Under the pieces are notes generated by a model. The model was given only the letters and a program-made list of their open reading frames with translations. It made no database searches and was not told where the DNA came from. A stretch of 64,000 bases of DNA from Candidatus Cloacimonadota bacterium (GTDB lineage: Bacteria > Muiribacteriota > UBA6191): the NCBI GenBank assembly GCA_023954715.1, contig JAGSHD010000001.1:364468-428467 (forward strand). The letters run 5' to 3'. The stretch's first letter is position 1; every line of letters begins with the position of its first letter. Shown here one piece after another: positions 11,656-53,947 of the stretch. Both the position numbers and the translations under genes were made by a program.

Positions 11656-11788
11656 GTAACTATTCAGTAATAATTTTTCAATTTGCTTACAAAGGTTGAT
11701 GATAAGATAGACCGCATACGTAAAGCACAAACTACGAAAAACTTTAATGCTCCGTAACTTTTATCGAAGAAAATACCTGAATAATTAC
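11656..11788 (+). mobile_element. MITE-like element, copy A (133-bp internally deleted variant)
   Basis: 5' TIR GTAACTATTCAG and 3' TIR CTGAATAATTAC. A perfect 8-bp direct repeat TAAATATT flanks it at 11648-11655 and 11789-11796. It aligns to the two ends of the 227-bp copies and lacks the central ~95 bp. Confidence 0.8.
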
Positions 11789-11861
11789 TAAATATTTAGT
11801 TATTATTTATCAATAAAAAGATACTATACTATCAAGCTAATATCTGACAAAATTCAAATAA

Positions 11862-12752
11862 TTGATGTATACTAATAATATGAAAATACTTTTATTTATA
11901 ATTTTAGTTTTGAATGTATACTCAAATGTATCAGATCAAAAGATTAACCTCGAAAAAGACCAATGGATTGGCCTTGGTTTTTTCTTGGCTCCCTATGAGT
12001 TAAACAAAATCCCAAAGTATTATAAGCAGTGTTACTCCAATGATAGATTTTTCTTAAAATTACCATACAATAGTTACCATCACAAAATTTTAAGCGCTGT
12101 CAAATGGCATAAAGACGTCTTAGAGTTAAAAACAGAAAGTGGTGAACCCATATACTGTAAACAAAGTTCTAAAGGCATTATCGAAGAGCTCATCTTTTAT
12201 AAAGATCTTCTACATGCCAAAAAGAAATATATAAATACTACTTTTTGGACCAAACAAAACTTTATGTATGTTCATGACCGAAAACGAAGAGTAAAAAAAT
12301 ATAAAACTCCAAGGTTTCAAGCACTAAAAGTTAAAAAAGTAGATTTGGCTCCTGTACATGAAAACCACTCAATTCGTATTCACCTCGAAACCGAAAAAGG
12401 CCTCCCGGGTTTTTTTGATATCTCATATACCGGAGTCAACCGAGTCGGAGAAATAGAAGGACTAAAAGAGTATTTCTTTTTACAGGATCCAAGAGTTGTT
12501 TTTGGTATGAACAATGATATTTTTAAACACGTCATAAATAAAAATGTCGTCATCGGAATGACCATTGAACAAGTACTGTTAACCATTGGTAAACCCAAAA
12601 AGTTTTACCAAAATAATCATAATACTACCCTTTTATACTACAATAAAATTCAAGACAATGAGATCGAATATCATTTTTATAAAAAGAGATTAACAAATAT
12701 CGTTGATATAGCAGACGACGAGTGGAACAGCGATGAGTTTGGTGAATTATGA
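11862..12752 (+). CDS. Hypothetical secreted protein
   Basis: 296 aa with a signal-peptide-like N-terminus. Its stop overlaps the next start (ATGA). Confidence 0.5.
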   Translation: MMYTNNMKILLFIILVLNVYSNVSDQKINLEKDQWIGLGFFLAPYELNKIPKYYKQCYSNDRFFLKLPYNSYHHKILSAVKWHKDVLELKTESGEPIYCKQSSKGIIEELIFYKDLLHAKKKYINTTFWTKQNFMYVHDRKRRVKKYKTPRFQALKVKKVDLAPVHENHSIRIHLETEKGLPGFFDISYTGVNRVGEIEGLKEYFFLQDPRVVFGMNNDIFKHVINKNVVIGMTIEQVLLTIGKPKKFYQNNHNTTLLYYNKIQDNEIEYHFYKKRLTNIVDIADDEWNSDEFGEL

Positions 12753-13318
12753 GTCACTATCATTATTATCAAACAGAAACTCAGTTTCTTGATCAAGAGA
12801 AAAAACAAAGAAAAAAACAATTTCGTAAATATAAAAGTCGATCTCAAAAGGCTAGTAAATATAGCTCTGAAACAATAAATACATATTTTAAAACCAAGAA
12901 GATACCTTCTTTTCATGTAACAAGCTTTCGACTCGTGACTAAGCTTAATAATCATTGGTTAAAAATATGTGGCCCAATTTTGTATCCCTATCTTAGGATT
13001 TATGAGCTTCAAGGAACTCAGCTAACTTTAATCGCACAAAGCGGTATCTGGCTTCAACAAGCAAGGTTTTTAGAGCGTGAACTTATTAAAAAGATAAAGC
13101 TAATTTTACCTGAAATCAATTTAGAAAAAATCGCCATTAAAGTACAATACTTTCAAACTAAAAAAACTAAGTCTACTAAAGAGTCTAAACTACCTCCTAG
13201 GCAAAAATCGGATCATATACAAATCAATAAAAACGAGATCCAAGATGACATTGGTAAAATGAGTCTAAAGCAAAAAATGCAGTACATGATAGATAAAGCA
13301 AACGAGCCTGAAAACTAA
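12749..13318 (+). CDS. Hypothetical basic protein (possibly DUF721/DciA-like)
   Basis: 189 aa with a lysine-rich N-terminus followed by a segment weakly resembling DUF721. Low certainty. Confidence 0.4.
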   Translation: MSHYHYYQTETQFLDQEKKQRKKQFRKYKSRSQKASKYSSETINTYFKTKKIPSFHVTSFRLVTKLNNHWLKICGPILYPYLRIYELQGTQLTLIAQSGIWLQQARFLERELIKKIKLILPEINLEKIAIKVQYFQTKKTKSTKESKLPPRQKSDHIQINKNEIQDDIGKMSLKQKMQYMIDKANEPEN

Positions 13319-13349
13319 AAAACTGTAAGAAATCTCTCACAGTTTTTTT
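13315..13349. terminator. Bidirectional intrinsic terminator between convergent genes
   Basis: Hairpin AACTGTAAGA-aatc-TCTCACAGTT with an A-tract upstream and a T-tract downstream. Confidence 0.55.
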
Positions 13350-13387
13350 AGTCTCTTCACTTCTGAGCCATCGGCTCCAATTTTAAT

Positions 13388-16018
13388 CTAGCTTGTCTTT
13401 TTTGCTGGTGCTTTTTTAGTAGTAGTTTTTTTTGCTGCTGTTTTTTTAGCTGGAGCCTTCTTCTTTGTAGCAGTTTTCTTTTTTGCTGTTTCAGCTTTAG
13501 GTTTTTTCTCGGCTGGTTCTTTCTTTTTTCTAGGTTCGAATTCGAAGCCATATTTACCATTTGCTTTTACAAACAACATAGCATTAAATGGACGATCTCT
13601 TTTAGATATAAAGTTAGTTAATAACTCTGTTTTACCTGCTTGAAAAAAAGATAAGGCCTCTTCTTCAGTAATTGGTCTCTTGCACACTAATAATGGGATT
13701 CGTCCTACAAAAGGTCCGTCCCCAGCAGACTTAGGTCTCTTACCCAAAATTTTTGGATAATCTCCACCTTCAAAATAAAAAGCTTCATTTGTTTTCTTAA
13801 AGACACCTGGCATCGATAGATATTCACTTTCTACATTTTTTTCAAATTCTACTTCTTCTTTTTCTTGAAGTTCTTTTGTCGATTTTGCTCGAATGGACTC
13901 ATACTTACCATCATCCGTCACTCGAAGGACTTCAACAGTAAACTCTTTGTTCATTTCGAGCTTTCCTTGAAAAGTTTTTCCATCTGGGTAGATCAAAGTA
14001 GTATCTTCTGTCTCTTTTTTCTCAAGAAAATCAACAACATAGCTTCTATGAATCAGTTTTCCACAATACTCTTTATGAAGCATAAAGTCACATTCAGAGT
14101 CTTTCTTTGTGTTTTTTTCACAAGCATATCCAAACATGTTTTCAAATAAATCAGAACTACATTTTGGACATTTGCCAACAGATGACTCTGCAGCATATAA
14201 ATCCTCATATTGAAAGTCTTTTAGCTGACCTATAACTTCATTTACATAAGATACGATTATTTTGTCATAGTCTTTTTTTACTAACTCTTTTGATTCAAGT
14301 TTTTGCAGGTCTGTCTCAAGATTTGCAGTCAACTCTACCGATGATAGTCTCTCCACTTTAACTCTTTGGATAACATCTAACAGTCGAATCGCTTTAGAAG
14401 TAGCTCTTAAAGAGTTACCGAGTCGGGTAACATATCCCACACTAATCAACTTTTCAATGATATCTGCTCTAGTAGCAGGAGTTCCAATTCCCTTGCCAGC
14501 CATTACTTCCATTAGGTTTTCATCTTCTACGGTTTTACCGGCAAACTCCATTAAGCTTAACAATCTTGCTTCACCAATTCGGGCTGGTGGCTTGGTCATC
14601 AAGGCTTCATCCTCGTAACCATCTGAAGTAACATTTTCTGATTTTAAGGCATTGAGTGCATTTGTCTGTGACTCATTGACTCCAAATACTTCTCTCCAAC
14701 CAAGAACCTTTAGATATCGTCCTTTAGTTTGAAAAGTATGGTCTTTAACTATTGTCTTTCTATCAATATTCTCCCAAACTGCATCTGGGTAGAATATAGC
14801 TATAGTTCTTTTTACAACTAGCTCATAAACTCTTTTATCATCGCCTTCTAAAGTCTTTTTACCTTGTTCACCAGTTGGAATAATTGCAAAGTGATCTGAA
14901 ATCTTTTTGTTATCAAATACTTTTTTGTTTCCACCACTGATTTTAGAAATAATTGGACTCGCAAATTTTCTAAACTCTGGGGATATGTTAGATAGAGCCT
15001 CTTTTAAGTAGTCCACATAATCTTCTGGTAAATGTTTAGAGTCTGTTCTAGGGTAAGTCAACATTTTATGTTGTTCATATAATCTTTGAGCAGCTTGCAA
15101 AGTTCTTGAAGCACTAATACCATAACGAGTATTTGCTTCTCTTTGAAGAGAGGTCAAATCAAACAATGGAAAAGCCGCTTGTTTTGCATCTTTTCTTGTT
15201 TCTGAAGCAGTAATTTGCCCAGAAAAAGAGGTTAAATCAGATAATATTTTATCTTTTTGCGCTTTGTCGTAGATTCGGTCCTTATGATCTCCAGTAATTG
15301 GTAGTATCAATTGACCAACATAGTTATGGTCACTAGCAGAAAAATCACCTTTAATACGAAAATACTCTTTTGGTACGTGAACCATGATTTCTAGCTCTCG
15401 TTTTACCAACATACTTAAAGTAGGAGTTTGTACTCTACCCACAGTAAAAACAGTTTTATTAAATCTTGCAGATAGTCTCTTAGTTATGGCTCTAGTTCCA
15501 TTAATACCGATTAACCAATCTGACTCAGATCTAGCTTTAGCAGCAGCGGCTAACCCTTCGTATTTTTCACTGTCTTCTAAATTATCAAAACCTTCAATGA
15601 TGGCTTCTTTGGTCATAGATGAAAGCCATAGTCGTTTTGAATCGAGCTTAACCTTTTCTTTTTCTATGATTTCGCGAAAGATTAATTCTCCTTCACGTCC
15701 AGCATCACAACCGTTGATGACCACATCAATATCTTTTCTTTTTAATAAAGTTTTAACAATTTTGTATTGAGATCTTGTTCTATGGACTACTTTGTATTTA
15801 AAAGTAGAAGGAATAATCGGAAGTTCGCTTAACAACCAAGGTTTGTATTTTTTATCGATATCTTCAGGGTTTTGTAATTCTAATAAATGGCCAATCGCCC
15901 AAGTAACAATATGAGTATCATTTTCAAAATACCCTTCGTTTTTGTCTTTAACTTTCAAAGCTTTTGAAATGTCTGTTGCAACACTTGGTTTCTCAGTTAT
16001 AACTAAAATTTTTCCCAT
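13388..16018 (-). CDS. topB: DNA topoisomerase III (type IA) with a Zn-ribbon and a histone-H1-like Lys/Ala-rich C-terminal tail
   Basis: 876 aa. The N-terminus ITEKPSVATDI...VTWAIGHLLEL gives the Toprim and TopB signatures. A CPKCSSDL...CEKN zinc ribbon is present. The last ~45 residues are KKPKAETAKKKTATKKKAPAKKTAAKKTTTKKAPAKKTS. Confidence 0.82.
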   Translation of the reverse strand: MGKILVITEKPSVATDISKALKVKDKNEGYFENDTHIVTWAIGHLLELQNPEDIDKKYKPWLLSELPIIPSTFKYKVVHRTRSQYKIVKTLLKRKDIDVVINGCDAGREGELIFREIIEKEKVKLDSKRLWLSSMTKEAIIEGFDNLEDSEKYEGLAAAAKARSESDWLIGINGTRAITKRLSARFNKTVFTVGRVQTPTLSMLVKRELEIMVHVPKEYFRIKGDFSASDHNYVGQLILPITGDHKDRIYDKAQKDKILSDLTSFSGQITASETRKDAKQAAFPLFDLTSLQREANTRYGISASRTLQAAQRLYEQHKMLTYPRTDSKHLPEDYVDYLKEALSNISPEFRKFASPIISKISGGNKKVFDNKKISDHFAIIPTGEQGKKTLEGDDKRVYELVVKRTIAIFYPDAVWENIDRKTIVKDHTFQTKGRYLKVLGWREVFGVNESQTNALNALKSENVTSDGYEDEALMTKPPARIGEARLLSLMEFAGKTVEDENLMEVMAGKGIGTPATRADIIEKLISVGYVTRLGNSLRATSKAIRLLDVIQRVKVERLSSVELTANLETDLQKLESKELVKKDYDKIIVSYVNEVIGQLKDFQYEDLYAAESSVGKCPKCSSDLFENMFGYACEKNTKKDSECDFMLHKEYCGKLIHRSYVVDFLEKKETEDTTLIYPDGKTFQGKLEMNKEFTVEVLRVTDDGKYESIRAKSTKELQEKEEVEFEKNVESEYLSMPGVFKKTNEAFYFEGGDYPKILGKRPKSAGDGPFVGRIPLLVCKRPITEEEALSFFQAGKTELLTNFISKRDRPFNAMLFVKANGKYGFEFEPRKKKEPAEKKPKAETAKKKTATKKKAPAKKTAAKKTTTKKAPAKKTS

Positions 16019-16385
16019 AATTATCCTACAAAAATATGATTGATATTTTTAACACTTGAAGTATAGTTTGAACACCAGCATTGATAAACCCATCATTACT
16101 GCCATTAAAATTAACATAATTTTGCAGTTTGCATTATTTTTTGAGTGATATCAAAATTTTTTTAAAAATGGTTTAAATTGTAACTATTTGAATAGTCCAA
16201 AAGCTACTTTATTTTATTTTCATTGATTTGCATAGCCTAGAAGCTATTGATATTACTTTAAAATGGATGCTCTTGTTTCAAAAAGTATAGTTAAAATTTT
16301 AAGACAATAAAGCTAAATACAATACTTTTAGACATAGTTATATTATACTATTTAATAAATAGAGTAACTTACCTTCTGGAATATC

Positions 16386-16568
16386 ATGGATCATCGTAGC
16401 GACAAGTCATATAAAAAAAATCAATCTTATAAACAAAAAAGAGACCTAGTTTATCTCTTTTTTATCTTATGGACAGTCTTTTATCCTCTAGACTTTTATA
16501 TAACACTTCCGGCCTTAGGACTATCTTATTTATTTTTTCAGCAAATTGAAAAACGACTTATTTTATGA
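16386..16568 (+). CDS. Possible small membrane protein (60 aa)
   Basis: ORF with one predicted TM segment. Unsupported otherwise. Confidence 0.2.
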   Translation: MDHRSDKSYKKNQSYKQKRDLVYLFFILWTVFYPLDFYITLPALGLSYLFFQQIEKRLIL

Positions 16569-16919
16569 GTCTTCTTTAGTTTCACTTTCTTTAGCCTCTA
16601 AAGCTTGTTGAGCATCTCTTTCTTCAAACAATCTTAAATACTCGTTTGTTTCAGCCAATTCATTTTTTACCTCAAGCATAGAGGCAGGGTTATAAGAGTA
16701 TACTCCAAAACCAATCAAACTAACTATACCGATGGCAGTTAACATAGCCTGCTTATCCTCTATCATGCTAGCTAATACAAAAACCACCATAACAACAATA
16801 TAGCCATTTTTCTTTTTCTCTTCTTCTTCTTTGAGTAAATCGAGTAACTCGACTCTTCTCTCTAAAAGTGTATTGCGATTGAGTTGAATGCTCTTTGGTT
16901 CTATTCTACCTAATTCCAT
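16563..16919 (-). CDS. Hypothetical membrane protein
   Basis: 118 aa with two hydrophobic helices (VVMVVFVLASMI, AIGIVSLIGFGVY). It lies 8 bp downstream of the 842-aa ORF. Confidence 0.45.
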   Translation of the reverse strand: MELGRIEPKSIQLNRNTLLERRVELLDLLKEEEEKKKNGYIVVMVVFVLASMIEDKQAMLTAIGIVSLIGFGVYSYNPASMLEVKNELAETNEYLRLFEERDAQQALEAKESETKEDS

Positions 16920-16926
16920 TTTGTTC

Positions 16927-19455
16927 CTAGTTATTTTGTGATGAAAACGATAATCTACTTTTCACCAATAGTGGTCGTAACTGAATTGAATGTTGCTTTT
17001 CTAGTAACTTATAAAGTTTACATAGTTTATCCTCATCATACAAGCCAAGATCTAATTGTTTTAAGTAAGCTAAGGCTCTCGGGTCCATTACATTTTCAAG
17101 TAGCTTTTTTTCTGCGTACAAAAACATAGCATTCTTAAAATTATTTTGTAATCGAAAGCATTCGATCAAATACTTGAAGCCTTCTTGACTCTCGTCTGTC
17201 TCAAAACATAGATAACCTAAATAATAAAACAAGCGATAGTCGTCCGGAAATTTATCACGAATCAATCTTTTGCAAAGATTTTTCATTTCTTCGTAGTCTT
17301 TTTTACCAGTAGCTAAAAACAAAACATTTTCAATTTGGGCATGATAATAGATCGCTTCTTCGGGTTCTTTCTTTTGTCCCATTTGAGAAAGCACTTTTAC
17401 CGAAATAAAATTACCACTCTCAAAAGCATCAAACAATGACCCAACCTTATCTCTACTATGTAGATAGCTTGTTGTCTTTAAAGAGTAAACAATTGTATTA
17501 CTAGTCCCGTCCACTAAAAATAGTTTATACCGGCTTTGATTCAACTCTAAAAGCTGGTTTAGTGTCTCTGGACTGATCACACCCTCGTTTCTATCAATTT
17601 TTATAGTGCCAGCCATATTGAGTAAACTTATATCTAAAGAGAAGGATTGCTCCTTAGAATCAAAAATAATATAATCTATTTGAGATATAGCTTCAAACCA
17701 TTTTCTAAGGGATTTTCTATCAGAATATAAAAAGATAGCTAACTCATTGTTAGAGCTTTGTTCTTGGTGAAATTTAGCTACTTTAAACTCTCCGCTAAGT
17801 ACCCCAAATACCTTTTTGATCTCCCCACTTAACTGAATTGTTGACTGATTTGGCACAAAAGGGTTTTCACTCAAAAAGTCGGAGAATAATCGCTGAAAAG
17901 ACTCTAGTTTAACTTGGCTCCATTTATATACCTCTAAATTTTTCATTAGAGCAGAGGGAGTTTTTTGCCAACCTAATCGTCGAAACCCCTTCAAAAGAGG
18001 ATCATTTTGTAGACCTTGAAAGCCTTGTGACTCCTTAGTTATTTTTTGTAACTCATCAGAGTCAATCTCTAGAGCTTTTGCTGCTGAGAATAAAAGCTGA
18101 CCTCTTTCTGCATCAATTTTTTCATCTACTTGGGCCATTCGGATTAAACGAGACATTAATTTTGTCTTGTTTAAATTTTCATTTTGAACGATTTTATTAT
18201 GGCGAAGCTCTCTAAAAACTTCTCGAAGCATTCTTCTATAGGCGGCCGTAGGTATTTTAAAAGAACTTATAGCTCTTTTAATGATAGTGCGTTCTTCGTC
18301 AGAAACACTCCTATCTTTATAAATCTCTTTTAAAAACTCCGAAACAATCATATATCGATCAAAGTTAGCTCCTGATCCTGACTTAGATAAACCGAGTAAA
18401 GCCCTCAATACCGAGTGAGGACTTTTTTTAATACGAATGCGAACTTCATCCAACATAATTGGGCCAATGCGATGTATATAAGCTTCTGGAATCCAATAGT
18501 ACAACTCAGAAAGAATCGGTAAATAATAATAGTTGAACTCAAATTTTTCATAGTTTTCTATTAAGTCCAAAGTAAACTTATACAAATCGACAAACGCAGC
18601 TAAACACCCCTTTTGAAAAAAAGAAAACATACTCTGAAAGTAATATTGCATTACTCCATCCATATTTTGATGATAGTGCCCTTTAAAGTCTAAATCCTCA
18701 TTAGTAATAATCTCCAAGGACTTTCTTTGAATGTGTCTTGCTACCTCAATAAATCGTTTATCATAAGGAGTATGATGGGCATATTGTAACAAAATAGGAA
18801 AAGTATCTAAAAATGCCACCAATAAATCATTGTTATTCACTTTTTTGATAATACTTGGATAAATTTCACAAATGTTTTCAACAAAATCTCGGATTTCTTG
18901 GGGTTCTCTTCTTTGAAATACATCCCAATATTCGTTCCAGACGCAATGGGCAAAAGCTACGTAGTCATGTTGAGTTTCACAACTACGAAAACGAGTTTTA
19001 AAGGTTAATTTGGTATCTGATATATTTTCAGACGATGTATTCACACCGCTTGCAATCGAACTCGATAAAAATACTTGTGGAGTGGAAATTAACTCCTTTG
19101 ATTTTTTGGCTCCATCATAAGAGTTACTTTTTGAAAAAATTTTACGAATCACTTTTAAAATAACCGGAGAAGACTCATTATTTAGGTCCTCAAGCACCCA
19201 CAAAAGTCTAGTTTTTAAAGTCTTTTTTTCAGTGCTCCATCGATCAGGGATAGAAAATAATTGTCGATATAATGTATCGTAAAATTGTGCAAATAAAACA
19301 TCTTCTTCAAGAATCAAACTCTTAGTTGATTTTAAATTTTTATCAACCAACTCTCTCCAAGAATAAAACGAATTTACATCAGAATTATTGGAACTAAATG
19401 TATCGAAAAGATTTGTGATGGAAACTAAATCTTGTTTAATTCCTTTTTTTACCAT
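16927..19455 (-). CDS. Large hypothetical protein (842 aa), no recognisable domain
   Basis: Long uninterrupted ORF with local codon usage. No P-loop, HExxH or other motif seen. Confidence 0.55.
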   Translation of the reverse strand: MVKKGIKQDLVSITNLFDTFSSNNSDVNSFYSWRELVDKNLKSTKSLILEEDVLFAQFYDTLYRQLFSIPDRWSTEKKTLKTRLLWVLEDLNNESSPVILKVIRKIFSKSNSYDGAKKSKELISTPQVFLSSSIASGVNTSSENISDTKLTFKTRFRSCETQHDYVAFAHCVWNEYWDVFQRREPQEIRDFVENICEIYPSIIKKVNNNDLLVAFLDTFPILLQYAHHTPYDKRFIEVARHIQRKSLEIITNEDLDFKGHYHQNMDGVMQYYFQSMFSFFQKGCLAAFVDLYKFTLDLIENYEKFEFNYYYLPILSELYYWIPEAYIHRIGPIMLDEVRIRIKKSPHSVLRALLGLSKSGSGANFDRYMIVSEFLKEIYKDRSVSDEERTIIKRAISSFKIPTAAYRRMLREVFRELRHNKIVQNENLNKTKLMSRLIRMAQVDEKIDAERGQLLFSAAKALEIDSDELQKITKESQGFQGLQNDPLLKGFRRLGWQKTPSALMKNLEVYKWSQVKLESFQRLFSDFLSENPFVPNQSTIQLSGEIKKVFGVLSGEFKVAKFHQEQSSNNELAIFLYSDRKSLRKWFEAISQIDYIIFDSKEQSFSLDISLLNMAGTIKIDRNEGVISPETLNQLLELNQSRYKLFLVDGTSNTIVYSLKTTSYLHSRDKVGSLFDAFESGNFISVKVLSQMGQKKEPEEAIYYHAQIENVLFLATGKKDYEEMKNLCKRLIRDKFPDDYRLFYYLGYLCFETDESQEGFKYLIECFRLQNNFKNAMFLYAEKKLLENVMDPRALAYLKQLDLGLYDEDKLCKLYKLLEKQHSIQLRPLLVKSRLSFSSQNN

Positions 19456-19656
19456 ATATAAACCTATCTTATTTTTAATCTATGCAGCAAAATTACAAAA
19501 ACATATTGTGTACTACAGTGGTCTGTTGACATATATTAAGCTATTTGGGTAGTTTTTGTCATGCTTTTATTATCTTGAGGTGACATTTTTCTAGCTAAAA
19601 TAATTATATCACTAGAGCCTTTCAAACTAAATAGATGGGCTAATCCTTAAACTATT

Positions 19657-19883
19657 GTAACTATTCAGATATAATTTTTCATTTTATCCACAAAGCTTGA
19701 TTACACATAGTTTTTTGATCATTGTTATATTTTATATTTACAGCTTTTGAAGTGTAGTGAACTACTCGAAAAAAGCTTTAGATACAAAGAATGATGATGA
19801 GCTAAACCGCATCAATAAAGCTAAAAGTGCGAAAAGCTTGTATGCTCCTCGTATTTTATCGAAGAGATCACCTGAATAATTAC
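19657..19883 (+). mobile_element. MITE-like element, copy B (227 bp)
   Basis: TIRs GTAACTATTCAG / CTGAATAATTAC. A perfect 8-bp TSD AAACTATT lies at 19649-19656 and 19884-19891. Confidence 0.85.
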
Positions 19884-19979
19884 AAACTATTTTTATTCTA
19901 TTTGAATTTACTATATGCTTTTAGTATATTCAGCTATAAGCTTATTAGGCAAACAAACTATCTAAGGACCCTATTTACA

Positions 19980-20708
19980 GTGAATCAAATCGTAATATCT
20001 GAAGATGAAATAACAAACAATACCATAGAGATTTTAAGCACTGATACAAGATACAAACATCTTACTACAGTTTTAAAACCCAAAGTAGGAGCAAAACTTA
20101 AAGCTTGTATCTTAAATCAAGGCCATACCCAACTTATATTGCATGAAGTCTATCCTCAAAAGCTTGTTTTTACTTTTGATCAAATACAAAATACAAAGCA
20201 TAACAATTTAAACTTAATCGTTGGATTAAGTCGCCCTCCAAGTATGAAAAAACTTCTCGAGCATGGTTCATGTATGGGTGTGACTAATTTTACTGTGGCA
20301 AAAACTAAATTAAGTGAAAAGTCTTTTTTACAATCAAAAGTTTTTCATGATCACTCCATTTCTACTTTGTTAAATTTAGGTCTTTCTCAATCAGTTCAGC
20401 ACTACAAGCTTCCTAGCTTTGATTTATCGCCTGATTATAAGCAAGTTTCCCTTTCTAATTTTTCAAAAGCAAATCGTTTCATCTTATGTCCTAGTGCTGA
20501 TCTTTGGCTAAGTAAGGATTTAATAGATTTTAATCAAGATATTACACTTGCTATTGGATGCGAACGTGGCTTTACTAAGCAAGAAGAAGAGCACTTTCAA
20601 GAGTACAACTTTATACCAATTAAGATTTCTAACTCTATCTTACGTGTGGAGATTGCCGTGTATTCTATTCTTTCTCAAATCGAACTTCTAAGGAACCAAT
20701 ATGATTAA
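19980..20708 (+). CDS. rsmE: 16S rRNA (uracil1498-N3)-methyltransferase RsmE
   Basis: The C-terminal SPOUT block AIGCERGFTKQEEE...NFIPIKISNSILRVEIAVYSILSQI matches the RsmE family. The start is placed at GTG 19980, giving 242 aa. The six-frame ORF start at 19827 lies inside the MITE and is rejected. Confidence 0.68.
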   Translation: MNQIVISEDEITNNTIEILSTDTRYKHLTTVLKPKVGAKLKACILNQGHTQLILHEVYPQKLVFTFDQIQNTKHNNLNLIVGLSRPPSMKKLLEHGSCMGVTNFTVAKTKLSEKSFLQSKVFHDHSISTLLNLGLSQSVQHYKLPSFDLSPDYKQVSLSNFSKANRFILCPSADLWLSKDLIDFNQDITLAIGCERGFTKQEEEHFQEYNFIPIKISNSILRVEIAVYSILSQIELLRNQYD

Positions 20709-21603: not shown

Positions 21604-21703
21604 CTAGACTTTAGTTTTTTTATTTATAAAGTCAGCAATATCTTTTTGTATCTCTGTAGATATATCCACAGGACACAATTTACTTTGAGCAATCTCTTTT
21701 TGA

Positions 21704-22186
21704 TTAATAGTTTCTATGCTCGGTAAATCGATTGATTTTTCTTCTTGAGAAGTGTTTGGGCAAGGGCTTTCGTCTGACTCTGGTGGGTTTAGTGTATTCT
21801 TCATATTCATATACCGCCTCTGGAGCTTGTTTATATCCGCAAATTGGCTCTTTTCTAGTATAATTGATGATTTTTGGAGCGTTTCTTTGAACCGACTTAT
21901 ATTGTTTGTAAACCCGATGACATTCAAGCTCTGCATTTTTAAACTCAGGTACTTCGTATTCCCACTTAGGAAAACTCACATCTCTTAGTGGCTCCCATTT
22001 TGGCTCAAACCACAAATCGTGCACATCTTCTTTTTTGTGATAATACCGTGTCATAGGCATTGCTACTTGATCATCTCCATAGATTATACCATAGCCTTGA
22101 TTTCTTCCTCGAAAGTAGTTATCTCTAGCGCTATAGGTTCCAACGATCAAAAGAAAACTTAATATATATACAGTTTGTTTCATCAT
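21704..22186 (-). CDS. Hypothetical secreted protein
   Basis: The start is chosen at MMKQTVYILSFLLIVGTYSA (signal peptide), preceded by GGAGG. The upstream extension to 22273 in the ORF track is unlikely. Confidence 0.5.
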   Translation of the reverse strand: MMKQTVYILSFLLIVGTYSARDNYFRGRNQGYGIIYGDDQVAMPMTRYYHKKEDVHDLWFEPKWEPLRDVSFPKWEYEVPEFKNAELECHRVYKQYKSVQRNAPKIINYTRKEPICGYKQAPEAVYEYEEYTKPTRVRRKPLPKHFSRRKINRFTEHRNY

Positions 22187-22985: not shown

Positions 22986-22998
22986 ACTCTAAATCTTT

Positions 22999-26448: not shown

Positions 26449-26471
26449 TCTATTGATTTAAGATAAAAGAT

Positions 26472-36476: not shown

Positions 36477-36479
36477 ATT

Positions 36480-43071: not shown

Positions 43072-43146
43072 ACTCTAATGATAAAGAAAGTTTGCTGTTA
43101 AGTCTTTGTAACAGTATAATGTCTCAAATCAATTACGGAGCTCCTT

Positions 43147-43695: not shown

Positions 43696-43717
43696 TCAAT
43701 CTATTATCTGATAGCAA

Positions 43718-45607: not shown

Positions 45608-46938
45608 TATTCATCTTCCAGACGATCCGTATCATCTTCATCACCATATTGAGCAAACATACTTTCAAAGGAGTCATCTATAAAGTCAAAGCAAATATCT
45701 CCAACAAATAATGGATCTCCATCTTCTGCTCCATGCTCTCTTAGATATTCCACAATACCCATGCTGGTCATAATCGCTTGTAATCTCTGAACACTTTGCT
45801 CTTGTTCAAAATTAGTCATTGCTACAACTCTTTCAATGTCTGTACCAGATATAAACCATCCCATATCCATATCCATTCGGATTTTTAATGGTTTATCTTT
45901 TGGAGCTTGGTACTCCACTTGAAATACTTCTTGCTGTGGTGGAAACTCTTTTAACAACTCTGCAATACGATAGACTAGCTCTTTTGTGCCCTCACCTGTT
46001 AGCGCAGAGATTAAATGAATTTCTTCTTTGAATCCCGCTTCACGAAGTTTTGATTCAAACTCAAGATGAGATTCTTGAGCGTCCGGCATATCTGCTTTAT
46101 TCAAAGCTATGATTTGCATTTTATTAGCCAATTTTTCAGAGTATTTTTGTAGTTCGTCGTTGACCTTCACAAAATTTTCAAAAGCATCTCTACCATCATA
46201 CGGAAACAAATCAATCATGTGCAACAAGAAACCTGTACGCTCAATATGACGTAAAAATTGATGGCCCAAACCCTGTCCAGTATGAGCTCCTTCGATGATC
46301 CCTGGAATATCAGCCATTAAAATAGAGTCTAAATCATTGATTGGCACCATACCTAAGTTAGGGACTAAGGTCGTAAATGGATAATCAGCAATTTTAGGTT
46401 TTGCATTAGATACCTTAGCGATAAAAGTAGATTTACCAACATTTGGAAACCCAATAATACCCACATCAGCACACATTTTTAACTCAAATCGCACTTCAAA
46501 CTCTTGCCCTGGTTGGCCTTTTTCACAATATTGAGGATAAGTATTATTTTTAGTAATTAATGCTCGATTCCCTTTACCACCTATTCCACCTTTAGCTAGT
46601 AAAATCTTCATTCCATCTGTATGTAAATCTGCGATGATTTCACCCTGTAAATTTAAAATACAAGTACCTGTAGGCACTTCTAGAATTAAATCAGGAGCTT
46701 TTCTTCCATCTGCTCTTTTTTTACCAGCTTCGCCATTTTCAGCATATTTATGTTTTGAATATCTAAACCTAGATAGACTGTTTATCGTGGACTTAGTGAC
46801 TACGTATACATCTCCACCTTTTCCACCTGTCCCTCCATCAGGGCCCTTAAATGCTTTATGACGAGACTTTATATAACTAACCATCCCGTTTCCACCAGCA
46901 CCAGCTTTTATTTTGACTGTAGTTTCATCGATAAACAT
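45607..46938 (-). CDS. obg: GTPase Obg/CgtA
   Basis: 443 aa. The Obg fold has Gly-rich repeats. G1 is GFPNVGKST and G3 is DIPG. A C-terminal OCT/TGS-like acidic domain is present. The gene overlaps the ABC-F start by 1 nt. Confidence 0.9.
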   Translation of the reverse strand: MFIDETTVKIKAGAGGNGMVSYIKSRHKAFKGPDGGTGGKGGDVYVVTKSTINSLSRFRYSKHKYAENGEAGKKRADGRKAPDLILEVPTGTCILNLQGEIIADLHTDGMKILLAKGGIGGKGNRALITKNNTYPQYCEKGQPGQEFEVRFELKMCADVGIIGFPNVGKSTFIAKVSNAKPKIADYPFTTLVPNLGMVPINDLDSILMADIPGIIEGAHTGQGLGHQFLRHIERTGFLLHMIDLFPYDGRDAFENFVKVNDELQKYSEKLANKMQIIALNKADMPDAQESHLEFESKLREAGFKEEIHLISALTGEGTKELVYRIAELLKEFPPQQEVFQVEYQAPKDKPLKIRMDMDMGWFISGTDIERVVAMTNFEQEQSVQRLQAIMTSMGIVEYLREHGAEDGDPLFVGDICFDFIDDSFESMFAQYGDEDDTDRLEDE

Positions 46939-47088
46939 ATCTATCCTTTTGGAAAACCTAAAATAAAACCATCCCCAAGTATCTTGTTTGGTTTTCCAAA
47001 GTGGGGATTAAAATATTAATTCAATTGCTCTTCTAAAAGTTACATCACAAATATATGCAAAATGAATAATTAGATGTAGTTCAACAAG

Positions 47089-47496
47089 CTATATGAGATT
47101 TATAAATAATAAAAGTAAACAAGCTAAAATTGCACTTATAATAAGATAAAACAATCTCATAATCCAACTTGCGCTAGACTCTGTATAAGTTGTAGTTTTA
47201 AGATGATTATACACTTCGTTATTGGCTATAAAGTCAATAAACGATAATATTGCTCCTACAATTGCAAGATTTTTAAAGTGCAAATGATAAGCCCCTAACC
47301 AAATAGAGATATTAAAAGCAAAAACTAGATATAGAAAAAAATAAAACTGACCTGAAGTCTCTGGTGATACTATTTCAAGTCCCTCTATTTCTATCCTTCC
47401 GGTGGTTAAATACTGAAAGGTCTCTGAACTTCTTTTTAAAGAACTCAGATATAAGACGGAAATGATCCCGATAAGCACACATAATATGATTTTCAT
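47089..47496 (-). CDS. Hypothetical small membrane protein
   Basis: 135 aa with four hydrophobic helices. Confidence 0.45.
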   Translation of the reverse strand: MKIILCVLIGIISVLYLSSLKRSSETFQYLTTGRIEIEGLEIVSPETSGQFYFFLYLVFAFNISIWLGAYHLHFKNLAIVGAILSFIDFIANNEVYNHLKTTTYTESSASWIMRLFYLIISAILACLLLLFINLI

Positions 47497-47688
47497 AAGC
47501 TTTTTGTTAACTCGTAATTACTTCATGTCGAAAAACATTAGTAGTTTAACAAATAAATCAATTCAACAACACCATGTACTATGATGTATATATTCAACAA
47601 AAATACGAACAGAATTTTTACCAAGCTATCATTATATTGTAAAAATTTCTTTAATCACAATATTTCATCTAGAAAAGGCACACATAAT

Positions 47689-48786
47689 ATGTTTCTGTTT
47701 ACACCAAAAATGTCTCGACTAAGACTCTTAGGATACAAATCTTTTGGTATGTGCATGTTGTTATCAGTTTTGGTTACTACTAGTTTTGCAACCAATCTTG
47801 TTGTGGATAACAAGGACGAATATTTATCTGAACCAATTCATCAAAAACCTATCGTTGAACAAGACGACTTTTTTAGTCGATATGCCCCTGAAAAGTTACT
47901 CCACTCTAATGCCACCCAAAAAGAAGACATTAGAATTAATTCTGCCATGGATGTTTCTCGCTATTCAGATGAAGTTGTAAAATTCAGCGGTATCGAAAAA
48001 CTTACTTCTGGTAAAAGATATCATAAGAAAGAAACTATATTAGATTATTCAAGGCTTATGCCATCTAACAGTGGTCCTACTGGTTTGATCAATGCAATTT
48101 CTGCTAGAGGATTACCAGAAGGTAAGATATCAGCTGCCTATATCAATACCAAAAGTGAAATAAAACAAGCTAATCTATTTAAAAATACAAAGTCATTTAG
48201 TGCAAATGATGCTAATTTTTTAATTAACTATGGTTATACAGATAATTTTGAACTTAACTTAAAAGTTCTTAAGACCTCTAGAAATCTTCAAACTCAAACA
48301 GGAAACTCTTATCACTCATCTTTAGAAGGTTTTCCCGAGTTTACTTTTGGTTTAAAGGCACATCAAAAGTATAAAAGTAACGAGTATGCGATCGGGTTTT
48401 TGAATACGAATATTTCAAGTTCTGCCCGTAAATTGATTGTAGATCAAGATTTTGAAAACTTTAAATCATTTTATGTCTCTGTAACAAGTGACTTTACTTA
48501 CAGAACTGAATCACACTTTGTATTGAAACGTAATAGCACAGACAAGAAATTTAACACCAGCAATACTTGGCTAACATTTATCGGTGGGTTTGATACCAAA
48601 CTTTCAAAGAAAACTCATCTGTTAACTGAAATCAAATATGAAAACTTCAAGTCAAATGTGAAAGATATTAGTATCAATGGCGGTATCCGACATAATATGA
48701 AAAACTCTGCTTTAGATTTATTTATAGTACGTGGAAACCAAACTGGCTACTCTGAAACTGGATTTAAAATATCTGGTGCATTCTAA
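47689..48786 (+). CDS. Outer-membrane beta-barrel protein (putative)
   Basis: The start is chosen at MFLFTPKMSRLRLLGYKSFGMCMLLSVLVTTSFA (signal peptide). The protein has alternating amphipathic strands and a C-terminal ...KISGAF ending in Phe, typical of OMPs. Confidence 0.5.
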   Translation: MFLFTPKMSRLRLLGYKSFGMCMLLSVLVTTSFATNLVVDNKDEYLSEPIHQKPIVEQDDFFSRYAPEKLLHSNATQKEDIRINSAMDVSRYSDEVVKFSGIEKLTSGKRYHKKETILDYSRLMPSNSGPTGLINAISARGLPEGKISAAYINTKSEIKQANLFKNTKSFSANDANFLINYGYTDNFELNLKVLKTSRNLQTQTGNSYHSSLEGFPEFTFGLKAHQKYKSNEYAIGFLNTNISSSARKLIVDQDFENFKSFYVSVTSDFTYRTESHFVLKRNSTDKKFNTSNTWLTFIGGFDTKLSKKTHLLTEIKYENFKSNVKDISINGGIRHNMKNSALDLFIVRGNQTGYSETGFKISGAF

Positions 48787-48795
48787 GTTAGTCTT

Positions 48796-49908
48796 ATGAA
48801 AAAGCCTCTTGAAACTGTCTATAAGCTTTTAGAAATAGTTGAAGATCGAAAAAAGAAAGACTTAAGCTTATCTAATCTACTCATTGGTGACCCAAATATT
48901 GACCCCCCTAAATCCCTCTTAAAAGCTCTTGAAAACAGTGTTTTTGATGGCCCTAATGGTTATAGTCCAGCCAAAGGTGATCCACACTTGATTGATGCTA
49001 TTATATCGTATGACAAAGTTAAAGCCAATCCTTCACAATTAATCATTGGAAATGGGTCTAAAACCCTGGTTTTTATTGCATTAAAACTATTGCTTCAGCC
49101 AAATGATAAAGTTTGTCTTTTCAGTCCCTATTATCCCGCCTATCAATCTCTATTACTTGAGTTCAATGCACAAATAACAAATTTAGATTATACTCGAGAT
49201 TATCTAAATGAGATAAAGAAAATAAAACCAAAGCTCGTCATTTTAACAAGTCCAAACAATCCCGATGGACAAACATTTACCAAAATTCAATTACAAGAGA
49301 TTTCAGACCTTACAAAACAGCTAAACTCTTATTTTATCATCGATGAGGCTTATCGCAATTTTATATATGATGAAGAAGTCTCTCAAGATTTATCAGACTT
49401 TATCTACGAGGATCACGTTATTTGCTTAAGGACATTCTCAAAAGCTCTGGCAATCTGTGGTTGGAGAATCGGTTACTGTATTGCAAATACAAACTTGATA
49501 AAACAGATGGCGCAAACTCAACTCTCTTTATTTAATCCGCTCAATCGAATCATGCAAAGAGCATTAACAAAATACCTAAAAAACCCTGATATAGGCTTTA
49601 ACAGCAAATCAAAACATATTTTCAAAAGTCGACTTAATAAAGTCTGCTCCTCTTTTGCTAAGCGCAACATCAAGGTTTCATCGCCTTTAGGAGCATTTTA
49701 TATATTTTTAAAGTTAAATTTAAGCGATACACAAGACTTTTGCATTGATTTAGCCACAAATACTGGGATTATTTTGTGGCCTGGCTATGATTTTGGTAAA
49801 CCTAGTTTTATACGAATATCTATAGCACAATTAGAAGAGAGTAAAATTGAATCCCTCATAGAGAGACTGACTCTATATCTAAAAGAAAATAAAGTTAATA
49901 TAATCTAA
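48796..49908 (+). CDS. Pyridoxal-phosphate-dependent aminotransferase, class I/II
   Basis: 370 aa. The motifs are NPDG(Q), a D-E-A-Y-like DEAY at IIDEAY, and the PLP-lysine in TFSKALAICGWRIGY. Confidence 0.75.
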   Translation: MKKPLETVYKLLEIVEDRKKKDLSLSNLLIGDPNIDPPKSLLKALENSVFDGPNGYSPAKGDPHLIDAIISYDKVKANPSQLIIGNGSKTLVFIALKLLLQPNDKVCLFSPYYPAYQSLLLEFNAQITNLDYTRDYLNEIKKIKPKLVILTSPNNPDGQTFTKIQLQEISDLTKQLNSYFIIDEAYRNFIYDEEVSQDLSDFIYEDHVICLRTFSKALAICGWRIGYCIANTNLIKQMAQTQLSLFNPLNRIMQRALTKYLKNPDIGFNSKSKHIFKSRLNKVCSSFAKRNIKVSSPLGAFYIFLKLNLSDTQDFCIDLATNTGIILWPGYDFGKPSFIRISIAQLEESKIESLIERLTLYLKENKVNII

Positions 49909-49922
49909 ACCACTATCTCAAT

Positions 49923-50807
49923 TTAAGAGTATTGTACCTTAGACACTATTGCTCTTAAGTCTGCTTCTACTACTTGTTGAAAATTTTGGGCTATCTCATC
50001 TAACATAGCCCGATCTTTTTGAATTTTTCTAAAATCTCCAACGAAATTTTGAAAACCAACCGAGCTAGCTGAAGCTTCTTCACAAAAAATAAATAATGAA
50101 AAAGGTTCATCTGGATCTTCAAAATCATCCAATCGAAAGCCTGTATTAAACAAATTTTTGCCATCTAAAATCTTACTCAATACACCAGGCAAGACATTAA
50201 ACTCATACTCTGCTACTTTTGCTCTAACATTATCATGTACTTTAGAGCCCGTAACATTTGGTAGCGACATAGAAATAGTATCGTTGTCATCCATTTCGCT
50301 AGGTAAATCTATACTCAAGTACTCAGCGATTAAATCCTCTAAAGTATCATCAATCGTATCTCTTAAATATGCTCGTAATGATTGGATTTCTGAGTAAACT
50401 AATTTATCATCTTCAATAAATCTAAACCATTCTCCTGGTAAGTCAAGTTGCGTTAATTGAAACATTTTCTCTAAAACTTGTTTTTCTTCAGCGGCGATTT
50501 CATCTGACGTTGAATGCTGATCAATATGCTTTATCTGATGCTCTTTATGTAACTCTCGACCTTCTCTATCAAACTCAAGAACATTAGCATAATCAAGAAG
50601 CTTTTCGTTGGCATCCATACGATCTGGCTCGTAACACAGTATTTTATTTACGCCCTTACCAATTCGATTTAAAGTATTGATATTTATTTCGTAGCGTTGC
50701 TTATCTGTCAAAGAATTATAATACTCCAACCTTTCAGCTTCATCCATTTTTTTAAAGTCTGGATTTAATTCCCCAACTATTTCAGTAATAGTATTAGCTA
50801 CACACAC
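49923..50807 (-). CDS. Hypothetical acidic protein
   Basis: 294 aa, highly acidic. No motif. Confidence 0.5.
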   Translation of the reverse strand: MCVANTITEIVGELNPDFKKMDEAERLEYYNSLTDKQRYEININTLNRIGKGVNKILCYEPDRMDANEKLLDYANVLEFDREGRELHKEHQIKHIDQHSTSDEIAAEEKQVLEKMFQLTQLDLPGEWFRFIEDDKLVYSEIQSLRAYLRDTIDDTLEDLIAEYLSIDLPSEMDDNDTISMSLPNVTGSKVHDNVRAKVAEYEFNVLPGVLSKILDGKNLFNTGFRLDDFEDPDEPFSLFIFCEEASASSVGFQNFVGDFRKIQKDRAMLDEIAQNFQQVVEADLRAIVSKVQYS

Positions 50808-51219
50808 AATATATCCCTTCTAAACTCGTTTTTAATTGGTATAATGACCGTTAAATGTTTTATTTGATCTATTTCAAGATTAACATTTTTAGAAAATTTT
50901 ACAAGGTAAAAGGGGCAAATTTCTTTATTTTTATCCATATTGCTTTCTCTCAGTAAGAATAGTATTTATAGTAAATTATCTAGTCTTCAATAAAAAGAAG
51001 ATTTGAATCACTACCTTGGACTATCTACCTAGACCTAAACTTTTCCAAACAAGACAAGTGTTTATCCAAATATCCTCCTAGTTCCCCCTTAAAGAGATAA
51101 CAAGGTCTATTTAACATTTGCAAATTAATCTTACTCTAAGCCAAAAAAATGCCCCTATTATATTTAATAATATTTGCTTTTCAGTTAAAATTAAAAAAAC
51201 AAATTTTACGTGAGGTTTT

Positions 51220-52245
51220 ATGAGTTCATTAAATATAGTCTATTACGAGTTTGAGCCTCGAAAACAAAGAAACCCGTCCACTATTATCGAGGGTGATATT
51301 GGCGATATCGAGTTTCATTGCCCTAGTATGCTACTTGAGTTTAAAAGCTTGATTGGTAAACTCGATAACGTTTCATTACTCTTTTTAGACTCTTCTTGTC
51401 CCGACTATTCTACACAACATTTTTTATATGGATTTAAAAAGATTTTCCCCGATGCGAAAGTTGTTATTTTCAACTCTAAAGGTAGTGCCGAGCACTTAGA
51501 GCATATCGTGTACTCTGGAGTAAAATGTTTTGTTCCTGAAGAGTTTTTACCCAATGATCTACACGGAATGTGCTACAAAGTCTTAGGCCTAGATTATGTA
51601 AAAAAAGAAGACCGACACTATTATAAAGGTAAAATTCTCATCATTGATGAAGAAGTCAATTTAGTTAAATTGTTAGAAACATTTTTATCCCAATTTGGCT
51701 ATGAAATCACTTCTGTCACAGACGCTTCTACTATTGCCACCGTCTTACAAAATGACAACTTCAATCTAGTTTTAATGGATGTAGATATAAAAAGTTTTCC
51801 GGCCCTTGATCTACTAAAAACTATTAAATCCCATGATGAAGAGACTTTCGTTTGTGGTATGGATTGGTTTGGTAACAAAGAAAAAGAAAGAGTTTTAGTT
51901 AATGCAGGCGCATATAAGGTTCTCAAAAAGCCTTTTGAACTTCATATTCTAGCTCAATTGCTAGGCAAACTTATCTTTCGATCCAGTAACGAAGAAATTC
52001 AAGTCGATTATAGTAAAACTCTTAAAAAAGGAAACGGCATAAAAAATAATTTAATGCTCCTCTCCATGGTTTGTGTGGTAACCGTTTTAAGTTTTGCGGT
52101 TGCAGAAAGTCTCTTAAAAGAAAGAGAAGTCGAACAAGTAAAAAAACCACAAAACCCACTAAATCACCCTATTGTACTTCAAATGATGCAACAACCTGTT
52201 GATGCAGACATCGAAAAAATCAAACAAAAGTTGGGTTCTAGATAA
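51220..52245 (+). CDS. Receiver (REC) domain protein with a C-terminal transmembrane anchor
   Basis: 341 aa. The N-terminal ~150 aa resembles a degenerate receiver. Residues ~160-275 are a canonical REC (KILIIDEE...LVLMDVDI...KVLKKPF). One TM follows (LMLLSMVCVVTVLSFAVA), then a short tail. Confidence 0.6.
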   Translation: MSSLNIVYYEFEPRKQRNPSTIIEGDIGDIEFHCPSMLLEFKSLIGKLDNVSLLFLDSSCPDYSTQHFLYGFKKIFPDAKVVIFNSKGSAEHLEHIVYSGVKCFVPEEFLPNDLHGMCYKVLGLDYVKKEDRHYYKGKILIIDEEVNLVKLLETFLSQFGYEITSVTDASTIATVLQNDNFNLVLMDVDIKSFPALDLLKTIKSHDEETFVCGMDWFGNKEKERVLVNAGAYKVLKKPFELHILAQLLGKLIFRSSNEEIQVDYSKTLKKGNGIKNNLMLLSMVCVVTVLSFAVAESLLKEREVEQVKKPQNPLNHPIVLQMMQQPVDADIEKIKQKLGSR

Positions 52246-52263
52246 TTGATAAGGACTTTTTTT

Positions 52264-52490
52264 GTAACTATTCAGCTATAATTTTTCAATTTGTTCACAA
52301 AGGTTGATAACATCTAAGTTTTTGATCATTGTTATATTTTGTATTTTAAGCTTTTGAAGTGTAGTGAACTACTCGAAAAAAGCTTTTAATGTAAAAGATG
52401 ATGATGAGCTAAACCGCATCAATAAAGTAAAAAATGTGAGAAACTTGTATGCTCCTCTCCTTTTATCGAAGAGGACACCTGAATAATTAC
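52264..52490 (+). mobile_element. MITE-like element, copy C (227 bp)
   Basis: TIRs GTAACTATTCAG / CTGAATAATTAC. No TSD. The 3' TIR provides the TAA stop (52487-52489, minus strand) of the adjacent 384-aa ORF. Confidence 0.85.
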
Positions 52491-53641
52491 GATTTATTTT
52501 GTATTAAACTTACTTCATGTAAAAACTGTTTTCCGTTAATCCATTTTGATTTATCTTTTTTAGTTAACTTAGTATACGAAATATGCCAAATTCGAACATC
52601 TAAATCATTCATGTTGAGTTCTCGAAACGTTAATAAACCCTCTTCGATATGCACGAAAATTTTACTTTCTAACTTTTCAATTAAGTTAAACAAATTTTCA
52701 TTGTTTACCAATATTCGCTGTTTATCAATTTGTAGGCTATTAGACTCATATAAAAACCATTGGACAAATTCTTTTAAGACATCAATTTCAATCCAAAACC
52801 TTTTTCGCTGCATACAAGACATAGTATACGAAAAGTTATACACTTCTAAATGTTCGGGTCTCATACGAAGCATACCCGATAAACCATTCGGTATTTTCAC
52901 CCATCCATTGTTAATGTTCATGATCTCTCTGATTCGCATTTGCCGAATGGGTATAGTCTCGCTTCCGTATAGAAAATTATATTCTTCCTCTTGATAACCA
53001 CTCATTTTCTGTGATAAGTACTCGTCAAATGTCTGTAAAATACTCTCTGTAGAATCTTTTAAATCTTCTACAAAGTAGTCTCTAATAGTTTGTAAAGCAT
53101 TATAAATAGATTGACTTGATGGCTCCCAGCCCATAATGCATTTAAAATCGTGATGATCTTCCATTTGGGTTTCATTAAAAGAGATATATGCTGGATGCTT
53201 TTGACGTAGTTTACCAGATTGGGTTAACAAGATTATCCCTAATTTTTGTCCTTTAAATTGATGTTTCGCAGCCTGATAAATACTTGCTAACCAGGATCGA
53301 TCATAGCTTTGTCCTAAATCTATAGTATTTAAAACTACAAAGCACCAAGAGTCTATGGAGACTACCAAATCTGCAATAATAGGATTACTTGAATTCGGAG
53401 ACAAAACTTTTTGCATTTGAATATCAATGACATGTAAAAACTTCTTTGGAAAGTCCTCTAAGTCTTGGGCTAAATGAGGTAGTTCAGTATGTTCAAATTG
53501 TAACTGTTTTAAAAAAGAGTTTAAAGCAACAATATTAAGTCCATGATTCATCTTTGGATTGAGTAACCAAGCATATAATGCCAGTAGGTAATCCCCGGGC
53601 AATCCTTTTTGAGTCGTAGAAAATAATTTAAGAATATTCAT
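52487..53641 (-). CDS. Hypothetical protein (384 aa) bracketed by two MITE copies
   Basis: Long ORF with no recognisable motif. Its stop codon lies inside the TIR of MITE copy C. Its start lies 80 bp from MITE copy D. Confidence 0.55.
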   Translation of the reverse strand: MNILKLFSTTQKGLPGDYLLALYAWLLNPKMNHGLNIVALNSFLKQLQFEHTELPHLAQDLEDFPKKFLHVIDIQMQKVLSPNSSNPIIADLVVSIDSWCFVVLNTIDLGQSYDRSWLASIYQAAKHQFKGQKLGIILLTQSGKLRQKHPAYISFNETQMEDHHDFKCIMGWEPSSQSIYNALQTIRDYFVEDLKDSTESILQTFDEYLSQKMSGYQEEEYNFLYGSETIPIRQMRIREIMNINNGWVKIPNGLSGMLRMRPEHLEVYNFSYTMSCMQRKRFWIEIDVLKEFVQWFLYESNSLQIDKQRILVNNENLFNLIEKLESKIFVHIEEGLLTFRELNMNDLDVRIWHISYTKLTKKDKSKWINGKQFLHEVSLIQNKS

Positions 53642-53720
53642 TGGTGCTATTATTTTTTGAATCCATATTTTGTTTCATTTGAACCTTTTAATTTGTCCGC
53701 GCTTCTATTATAGGGTAAAA

Positions 53721-53947
53721 GTAACTATTCAGCTATAATTTTTCAGTTTCTTTACAAAGGGTAGTTATATCTAGGTTTTTGATCATTATTATATTTTGCA
53801 TTTAAAGCTATTTAAGTGTAGTGAACTACTCGAAAAGAGCTTTAAATATAAAAGATGATGATGAGATAAACCGCATTAATAAAGTAAAAAATACGAAAAA
53901 CTTGTATGCTCCTCACTGTTTATCAAAAAGACCACCTCAATAATTAC
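53721..53947 (+). mobile_element. MITE-like element, copy D (227 bp, most diverged)
   Basis: 5' TIR GTAACTATTCAG. The 3' TIR is degenerate (CTCAATAATTAC). No TSD. Confidence 0.8.

Follow-up and report, generated by a model that had tools for sequence, protein, structure and literature searches.

How a short sequence comes to lie at four places in one stretch of bacterial chromosome is the question raised by 64,000 nucleotides of DNA from Candidatus Cloacimonadota bacterium (GenBank assembly GCA_023954715.1, contig JAGSHD010000001.1, positions 364,468 to 428,467; hereafter the window). The four copies, designated A to D, were described in a first-pass annotation as a new family of elements resembling MITEs (miniature inverted-repeat transposable elements). 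We conclude that they very probably represent a non-autonomous MITE with ends of the type found in the ISBst12 group of IS66-family insertion sequences (ISs), 227 bp long and accompanied by one 133-bp internal-deletion derivative. The MITE-like and non-autonomous character is supported by terminal inverted repeats (TIRs), 8-bp target-site duplications (TSDs), the lack of a transposase, the divergence of the copies from one another and the presence of a deletion derivative. The element was previously uncatalogued as a sequence family and is ordinary as a kind of element, and its novelty as a family is therefore restricted to its internal sequence.

Copies, ends and target-site duplications

In an nhmmer search of the window, a profile of the three full-length copies gave exactly four matches, copies A to D, all at the positions first reported and all on the plus strand (Table 1); the only additional matches are on the minus strand, self-hits that result from an internal palindrome. 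Pairwise identity is 86.8% between B and C, 86.8% between C and D, and 82.8% between B and D. Copy A is the most diverged of the four, with 82–91% identity to the others over the 5′ 45 nt and 76% over the 3′ 88 nt. Neither the 227-bp nor the 133-bp form encodes a transposase. Identity between copies is 0.75–1.00 over the terminal 20 nt at either end of the element, compared with 0.20–0.50 in the left flanks and 0.40–0.65 in the T-rich right flanks, and the similarity drops exactly at the TIR positions.

Table 1. Positions in the window of the element copies, their internal and flanking features, and neighbouring reading frames (ORF, open reading frame)
Feature	Position	Strand	Remarks
Copy A	11656-11788	+	133 bp, deletion derivative
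Copy B	19657-19883	+	227 bp, full length
Copy C	52264-52490	+	227 bp, full length
Copy D	53721-53947	+	227 bp, full length; degenerate 3′ TIR CTCAATAATTAC
5′ TIR	A 11656-11667; B 19657-19668; C 52264-52275; D 53721-53732	+	GTAACTATTCAG
3′ TIR	A 11777-11788; B 19872-19883; C 52479-52490; D 53936-53947 (degenerate)	-	GTAATTATTCAG on the minus strand
TSD of copy A	left 11648-11655; right 11789-11796		TAAATATT, 8/8
TSD of copy B	left 19649-19656; right 19884-19891		AAACTATT, 8/8
Imperfect palindrome	C 52326-52407	+	arms ~40 nt; element positions ~63-144
40-codon ORF	B 19757-19879; C 52364-52486; D 53821-53943	+	GTG-initiated; ends in 3′ TIR
Promoter-like site across left junction	A 11653-11681; B 19654-19682	-	TTGAAA-17-TACAAT
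PEMT-like ORF	11171-11629	-	neighbour of copy A
842-aa ORF	16927-19455	-	neighbour of copy B
384-aa ORF	52487-53641	-	stop codon within copy C
Terminator-like hairpin	52457-52438	-	in copy C, with T-run
SAM-methyltransferase gene	53987-54712	-	241 aa; adjoins copy D
Spurious ORFs or N-terminal extensions	19827-20708; 52449-52994; 53906-54049		begin inside the element and enter the flank

The element ends are 5′-GTAACTATTCAG(C)...(C)CTGAATAATTAC-3′, with the 3′ end reading GTAATTATTCAG(G) on the minus strand. The 12-bp TIRs, which had been recognized at the outset, pair at 11/12 in each of A, B and C, and at 10/12 in copy D. If one mismatch is allowed, the TIR motif is found eight times in the window – seven of these being element ends – where 0.48 matches are expected. 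Chance was estimated by drawing 2 million segments of 133 or 227 bp at random from the window, giving an empirical probability of 3e-5 that the ends of such a segment form an inverted repeat matching at 11/12, and of 3e-5, for each of A and B, that the flanks match at 8/8. The perfect 8-bp TSDs noted in the first-pass annotation at these two copies are well founded, and they differ from each other in sequence. The 5′ motif quoted for the family, which includes (C/A)TATAAT, needs amending for copy A, which starts GTAACTATTCAGTAATAATTTTTCA / GTAACTATTCAGTAATAAT.

Both intact TSDs (TAAATATT and AAACTATT) also resemble the end of the element itself, matching its positions 2–9 (TAACTATT) at 7/8, with A and B agreeing in offset and orientation; the window background of 8-mers so similar to TAACTATT is 1.1e-3. 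With n = 2, this likeness may reflect a preference for end-like targets. To our knowledge, a preference for targets resembling an element's own termini has not been described for the poorly studied ISBst12 subgroup of IS66.

The imperfect palindrome is present in copies B, C and D, and is deleted in A. Copy A is indeed a deletion derivative, as had been proposed, and lacks 94 bp corresponding to positions 46–139 of the 227-bp form, with the junction following position 11700. This junction is framed by two short direct repeats, AAAGGTTGAT and AAAAGATGAT, which bracket the palindrome, a pattern such as slipped-strand deletion at a hairpin would be expected to leave.

More diverged than any other copy, A is nevertheless flanked by a perfect TSD, which suggests that subfamilies had diverged before A inserted; this would mean that further copies are, or once were, present. 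Among Logan contigs of the short-read source sample (SRR13262723), one ends 121 nt into copy A and one ends 25 nt into copy C. These contig ends fit repeat-induced assembly breaks and weakly imply further copies in the genome; near-identical ones are implied only weakly because the stretches shared among the copies of the window fall short of the length of a typical k-mer. There is no further copy in the 2.2 kb to the left of the window that are covered by a Logan contig.

Terminal sequences of the ISBst12 group

The inverted repeats of IS66-family elements begin with GTAA, and the family generates 8-bp direct repeats (PMC11946415). In ISDge4, a member of the ISBst12 group of this family, the TIRs are GTGACTACTCAGCA and GTAACTGCTCAGCA, the direct repeat is 8 bp long and the only transposase has 449 aa; this IS is reported to move by copy-and-paste (PMC12898284). 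For comparison with the window element we used a set of reference ISs, which are single-ORF elements of 1.5–1.6 kb, and scanned the transposases of four of them; all four match NF033517 (transpos_IS66), with E values of 1e-92 to 1e-101. The IS of G. kaustophilus pHTA426 has the ends GTAACTATTCAGCCC / GTATCTATTCAGCCC and the 8-bp TSD AACTCGTC, and that of Chlorohelix has the ends GTAACAATTCAGCC / GTAACAGTTCAGAC and the 8-bp TSD AATTATTT. In B. thuringiensis both ends of the IS are GTAACTACTCAGCTT, with a 7/8 match between the TSDs, and the ISs of Acaryochloris (ends GTTACTGCCCAGGC, TSD CTTCATTC) and Octadecabacter (ends GTAACTCCCAAG, TSD TTTATTTG) are again flanked by 8-bp repeats. The TSD length is 8 bp in every reference IS for which both ends were found.

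The first 13 nt of the window element are the same as the left end of the pHTA426 IS (GTAACTATTCAGC), and the element ends fit the GTAACTnnTCAG pattern of several ISBst12-type ISs, including ISDge4 (GTAACTGCTCAGCA) and an IS of a Prevotella metagenome-assembled genome (MAG) with the ends GTAACTATTCAGCGAT. ISs of the ISBst12 group – ISBst12 itself, ISDge4, and the copy of the 'IS66-like element ISGka4 family' on pHTA426 – are therefore like the window element in having GTAACTnnTCAG-type TIRs and an 8-bp TSD. They differ from it in being 1.5–1.6 kb rather than 227 bp long, in encoding a single DDE transposase of ~450–485 aa (NF033517) where the window element has none, and in their unrelated internal sequence. 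The first-pass annotation had advised a search for full-length ISs with GTAACTATTCAG-type ends and an 8-bp TSD; such ISs do exist in other genomes, in the ISBst12 group of the IS66 family, and none was found in the window.

Similar ends are also carried by short elements elsewhere. A scan of genome contigs with the 19-nt pattern GTAACTATTCAGNNATAAT listed at least 110 matches, and 52 of the 110 matches listed correspond to a single conserved gene junction of the Flavobacteriaceae (Polaribacter and others; GTAACTATTCAGAAATAATGAAAGTAGCAGTTTTAGAT), in which one gene ends and the next one starts and which is unrelated to the element. Of the 58 remaining listed matches, ten belong to complete elements, in which a partner end in inverted orientation is present and the 8-bp TSD is perfect; the chance expectation for this is, by a rough estimate, ~2e-4 per locus. 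One of the ten is the IS from the Prevotella MAG, which is 1596 bp long, encodes an ISBst12-like transposase and has a perfect 8-bp TSD. The other nine are transposase-less elements, ranging from 153 to 259 bp and located in Bacteroidaceae RGIG6190 (153–180 bp), in a Muribaculaceae MAG and Alloprevotella tannerae ATCC 51259 (163–164 bp), in 'bacterium MEGAHIT-group-1.1006', an unclassified MAG (249 bp), and in a KSB1 MAG (259 bp), all with perfect 8-bp TSDs.

These short elements of other genomes are like the window element in having GTAACTATTCAG(C)NATAAT ends, perfect 8-bp TSDs, a length of 150–260 bp and no transposase. Beyond the terminal ~19 nt, the window element could not be aligned with either the Prevotella IS or the short elements, and local alignment scores lie within the range of shuffled sequences. 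The short elements of other genomes are separate families of independent origin. The ISBst12 subgroup of IS66, which has been little studied, thus appears to yield MITEs repeatedly, and an uncultured lineage labelled 'Cloacimonadota' can be added to the putative hosts of ISBst12-type mobile DNA.

A plausible mechanism can be proposed in which the element carries only the terminal sequences recognized by a transposase. A DDE transposase of the ISBst12 group, encoded elsewhere in the genome or since lost, would bind both 12-bp ends; recognition by a transposase of this type is suggested because the end sequences are identical in type, and we infer that the element was mobilized in trans by such an enzyme in the host genome. 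Insertion takes place at staggered cuts 8 bp apart, as the TSDs of A and B show, and repair of the gaps would generate the 8-bp direct repeats that surround these two copies. Copies C and D would be older insertions whose duplications have decayed, with the 3′ end of D having mutated as well, and copy A would have lost its 94 bp between the two short direct repeats that flank the palindrome.

Classical MITEs, including Correia/NEMIS of Neisseria, RUP of S. pneumoniae, MITEPsy1 of P. syringae and MITEAba12, are likewise small, TIR-bounded, TSD-flanked, non-autonomous and mostly intergenic, and share with the window element the potential to form internal secondary structure. They differ from it in their TIR sequences, in the length of their TSDs (2–4 or 9 bp) and in their parental IS families (e.g. 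IS5 and IS630). Transposition of MITEPsy1 has been shown experimentally, whereas mobility of the window element is deduced from its sequence. MITEPsy1 can also alter gene ends and expression (PMC3189936).

Unoccupied sites and alternative explanations

Among 5.8 billion proteins searched, the only close relative of the window is represented by a MAG (COB02) whose Obg protein, PCJ17337.1, is 83% identical, the next-best matches being at most 55% identical. At the syntenic locus of this relative, a response-regulator gene and a 382-aa ORF converge with their stop codons 3 bp apart, and the counterpart of this 3-bp gap in the window is 241 bp long and includes copy C. The distance from a GST-like gene to the 382-aa ORF is 16 bp in the relative and 1074 bp in the window, where it contains copy D and the gene for a 241-aa methyltransferase. 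A comparison of empty and filled sites, which had been suggested as a check, therefore finds sites C and D unoccupied in the closest relative, itself distant at ~74% identity, and no copy of the element is present in ~32 kb of its non-redundant sequence. Sites C and D record a gain or loss of the element with respect to the sister lineage. Sites A and B have no comparable counterpart in the relative, in which synteny around topB is broken and the contigs are short. The SAM-methyltransferase gene adjoining copy D is missing from the syntenic locus of the relative, and is a separate gene gain or loss beside the MITE.

Several observations weigh against the identification of the four copies as an ISBst12-type MITE. 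The flanks match at only 5/8 in C and 2/8 in D, such that neither of these two has a recognizable TSD. The known copies number only four, and two metagenome scans (using a core pattern and the 5′ end) and one viral scan found no copy elsewhere. Comparison by tblastn with six IS66-type transposases revealed no such transposase in the window – in accordance with the first-pass annotation, which had noted the lack of a transposase with matching ends – or in the loci of the relative. The internal DNA has no similarity to any ISBst12-type IS examined, and because of this unrelated interior, derivation from an ISBst12-type IS rests on ~12–19 terminal bases and the TSD length. The relative is also distant (~74% nucleotide identity in genes), the empty sites are not alignable to the base pair, and the gap at site D spans one whole extra gene in addition to the element.

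Other origins for the repeats can be considered. An 8-bp TSD is not unique to the IS66 family, and the copies could be a MITE moved by the transposase of another family with 8-bp TSDs (e.g. ISL3, IS1595, IS256 or IS6) rather than by one of IS66/ISBst12 type. This is improbable, however, given that the terminal 12–13 nt equal those at the left end of the pHTA426 element, a member of the IS66 family (GTAACTATTCAGC), and that the ends conform to the GTAACTnnTCAG pattern, as do those of several other ISBst12-type ISs; the ISfinder consensus ends of the other families begin with GGCTCTT (ISL3 and IS1595), GGCACTG (IS6) and GAGTC-like (IS256). Dispersed intergenic repeats, similar to REP/BIME or ERIC sequences and spread by host recombination or segmental duplication rather than by transposition, would also be expected to be intergenic and to contain palindromes, as these copies do, and all four copies are on the same strand. 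Nonetheless, the similarity ends exactly at the TIRs, the two perfect 8-bp TSDs have different sequences, the element ends equal IS termini, and the genes flanking the copies are mutually unrelated, and we give this explanation hardly any credence. The terminal complementarity and the central hairpin could alternatively be the stems of a structured small-RNA gene family or another RNA-level element, and the sequence does fold better than shuffled versions on both strands (z = -3.7 for the plus and -3.5 for the minus strand), with several G-U pairs in the central hairpin on the plus strand. But such near-equal folding of the two strands is as for a DNA palindrome, and the whole central hairpin is missing from copy A. 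A structured RNA with covariation had been set beforehand as the outcome that would speak against mobile DNA, and it was not found: no Rfam family matches at gathering scores (when E values up to 10 are allowed, the only matches are at chance level), and a compensatory change is present in just one of 64 predicted pairs. In the central stem, substitutions break ~6 pairs as opposed to ~4 that are maintained through one-sided changes, and the covariation term, at +1.9, is unfavourable. Since an RNA gene would also leave the TSDs and the IS-type ends unexplained, this interpretation is very improbable.

The remaining alternative concerns the 40-codon ORF, which qualifies the earlier statement that the element has no coding capacity: the ORF is open in B, C and D, but purifying selection on it is not apparent, and it probably does not represent a functional gene. 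If each full-length copy were instead a promoter together with a gene for a 40-aa basic peptide (MNYSKKA..DDELNRINK..LYAP..LSKR.PE), the conserved 3′ end would be a set of tandem stop codons rather than a transposase site. The ORF is indeed open in all three full-length copies, including D in spite of a TGA-to-TCA change, and close to its 5′ end the element has a TATAAT hexamer. Against this, variable sites are distributed 8/9/8 over codon positions 1/2/3, and the divergence of the ORF (25 of 120 columns variable) equals that of the upstream 100 nt (22/100). There is no Shine-Dalgarno-like sequence upstream of the GTG, nor a complete sigma-70-like promoter on the plus strand at the TATAAT, and copy A lacks the ORF start and has an earlier stop. 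A word-indexed search with the peptide found no homologue, and a profile search of 1.84 billion representative proteins found two repetitive false positives only. The peptide gene would furthermore leave unexplained both the TSDs and the match of the 5′ end to an IS terminus, and its existence strikes us as highly unlikely. One of the two false positives is an FMRFamide-like repeat precursor, whose (Q/P)YAPRFLGKR repeats resemble the LYAPRILSKR of the ORF by chance. The peptide is also unrelated to the six IS66-type transposases used in the tblastn comparison.

Genomic context and neighbouring genes

The window is chromosomal, has a G+C content of 33%, and encodes topoisomerase III, Obg, a Na+-pyrophosphatase, an MCP, MalQ and an RND pump. 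The Obg protein encoded here is the same as NCBI protein MCO4780999.1, which belongs to a MAG labelled Candidatus Cloacimonetes/Cloacimonadota and is encoded on a contig of 600 kb. Copy B is located in a divergent intergenic region, between the 842-aa ORF on the minus strand and an RsmE-like methyltransferase gene on the plus strand, and copy C sits between two convergent genes. The description of all four copies as intergenic does not hold strictly for C, because its last 4 nt (TTAC) provide the TAA stop codon of the 384-aa minus-strand ORF. The orthologue of this ORF in the relative has different C-terminal residues. On its minus strand, copy C furthermore includes a hairpin that resembles a terminator and has a T-run, directly downstream of the 384-aa ORF.

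A promoter-like site is present on the minus strand across the left junctions of A and B, with the -35 hexamer (TTGAAA/ATGAAA) lying within the element and the -10 hexamer, TACAAT, spanning the boundary between element and flank. These sites face the minus-strand neighbours, the PEMT-like ORF at A and the 842-aa ORF at B, and such promoter-like matches are near chance level in the AT-rich DNA of the window. It is doubtful that the MITE is more than a passive relic, in the sense that ISBst12-type transposases choose end-like targets and that inserted copies have been co-opted for gene expression (through an outward promoter at A and B, and a stop codon and terminator-like hairpin at C). No long-standing question is opened by these observations, and the end-like targets and the effects on neighbouring genes are small leads.

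The element also affects gene annotation. Spurious ORFs or N-terminal extensions (MLL.FYRR.HLNNY...) begin inside copies of the element and enter the adjacent flank, and the copies should be masked as repeats since they spawn such ORFs. The RsmE-like gene beside copy B probably starts near 19980, and not at 19827.

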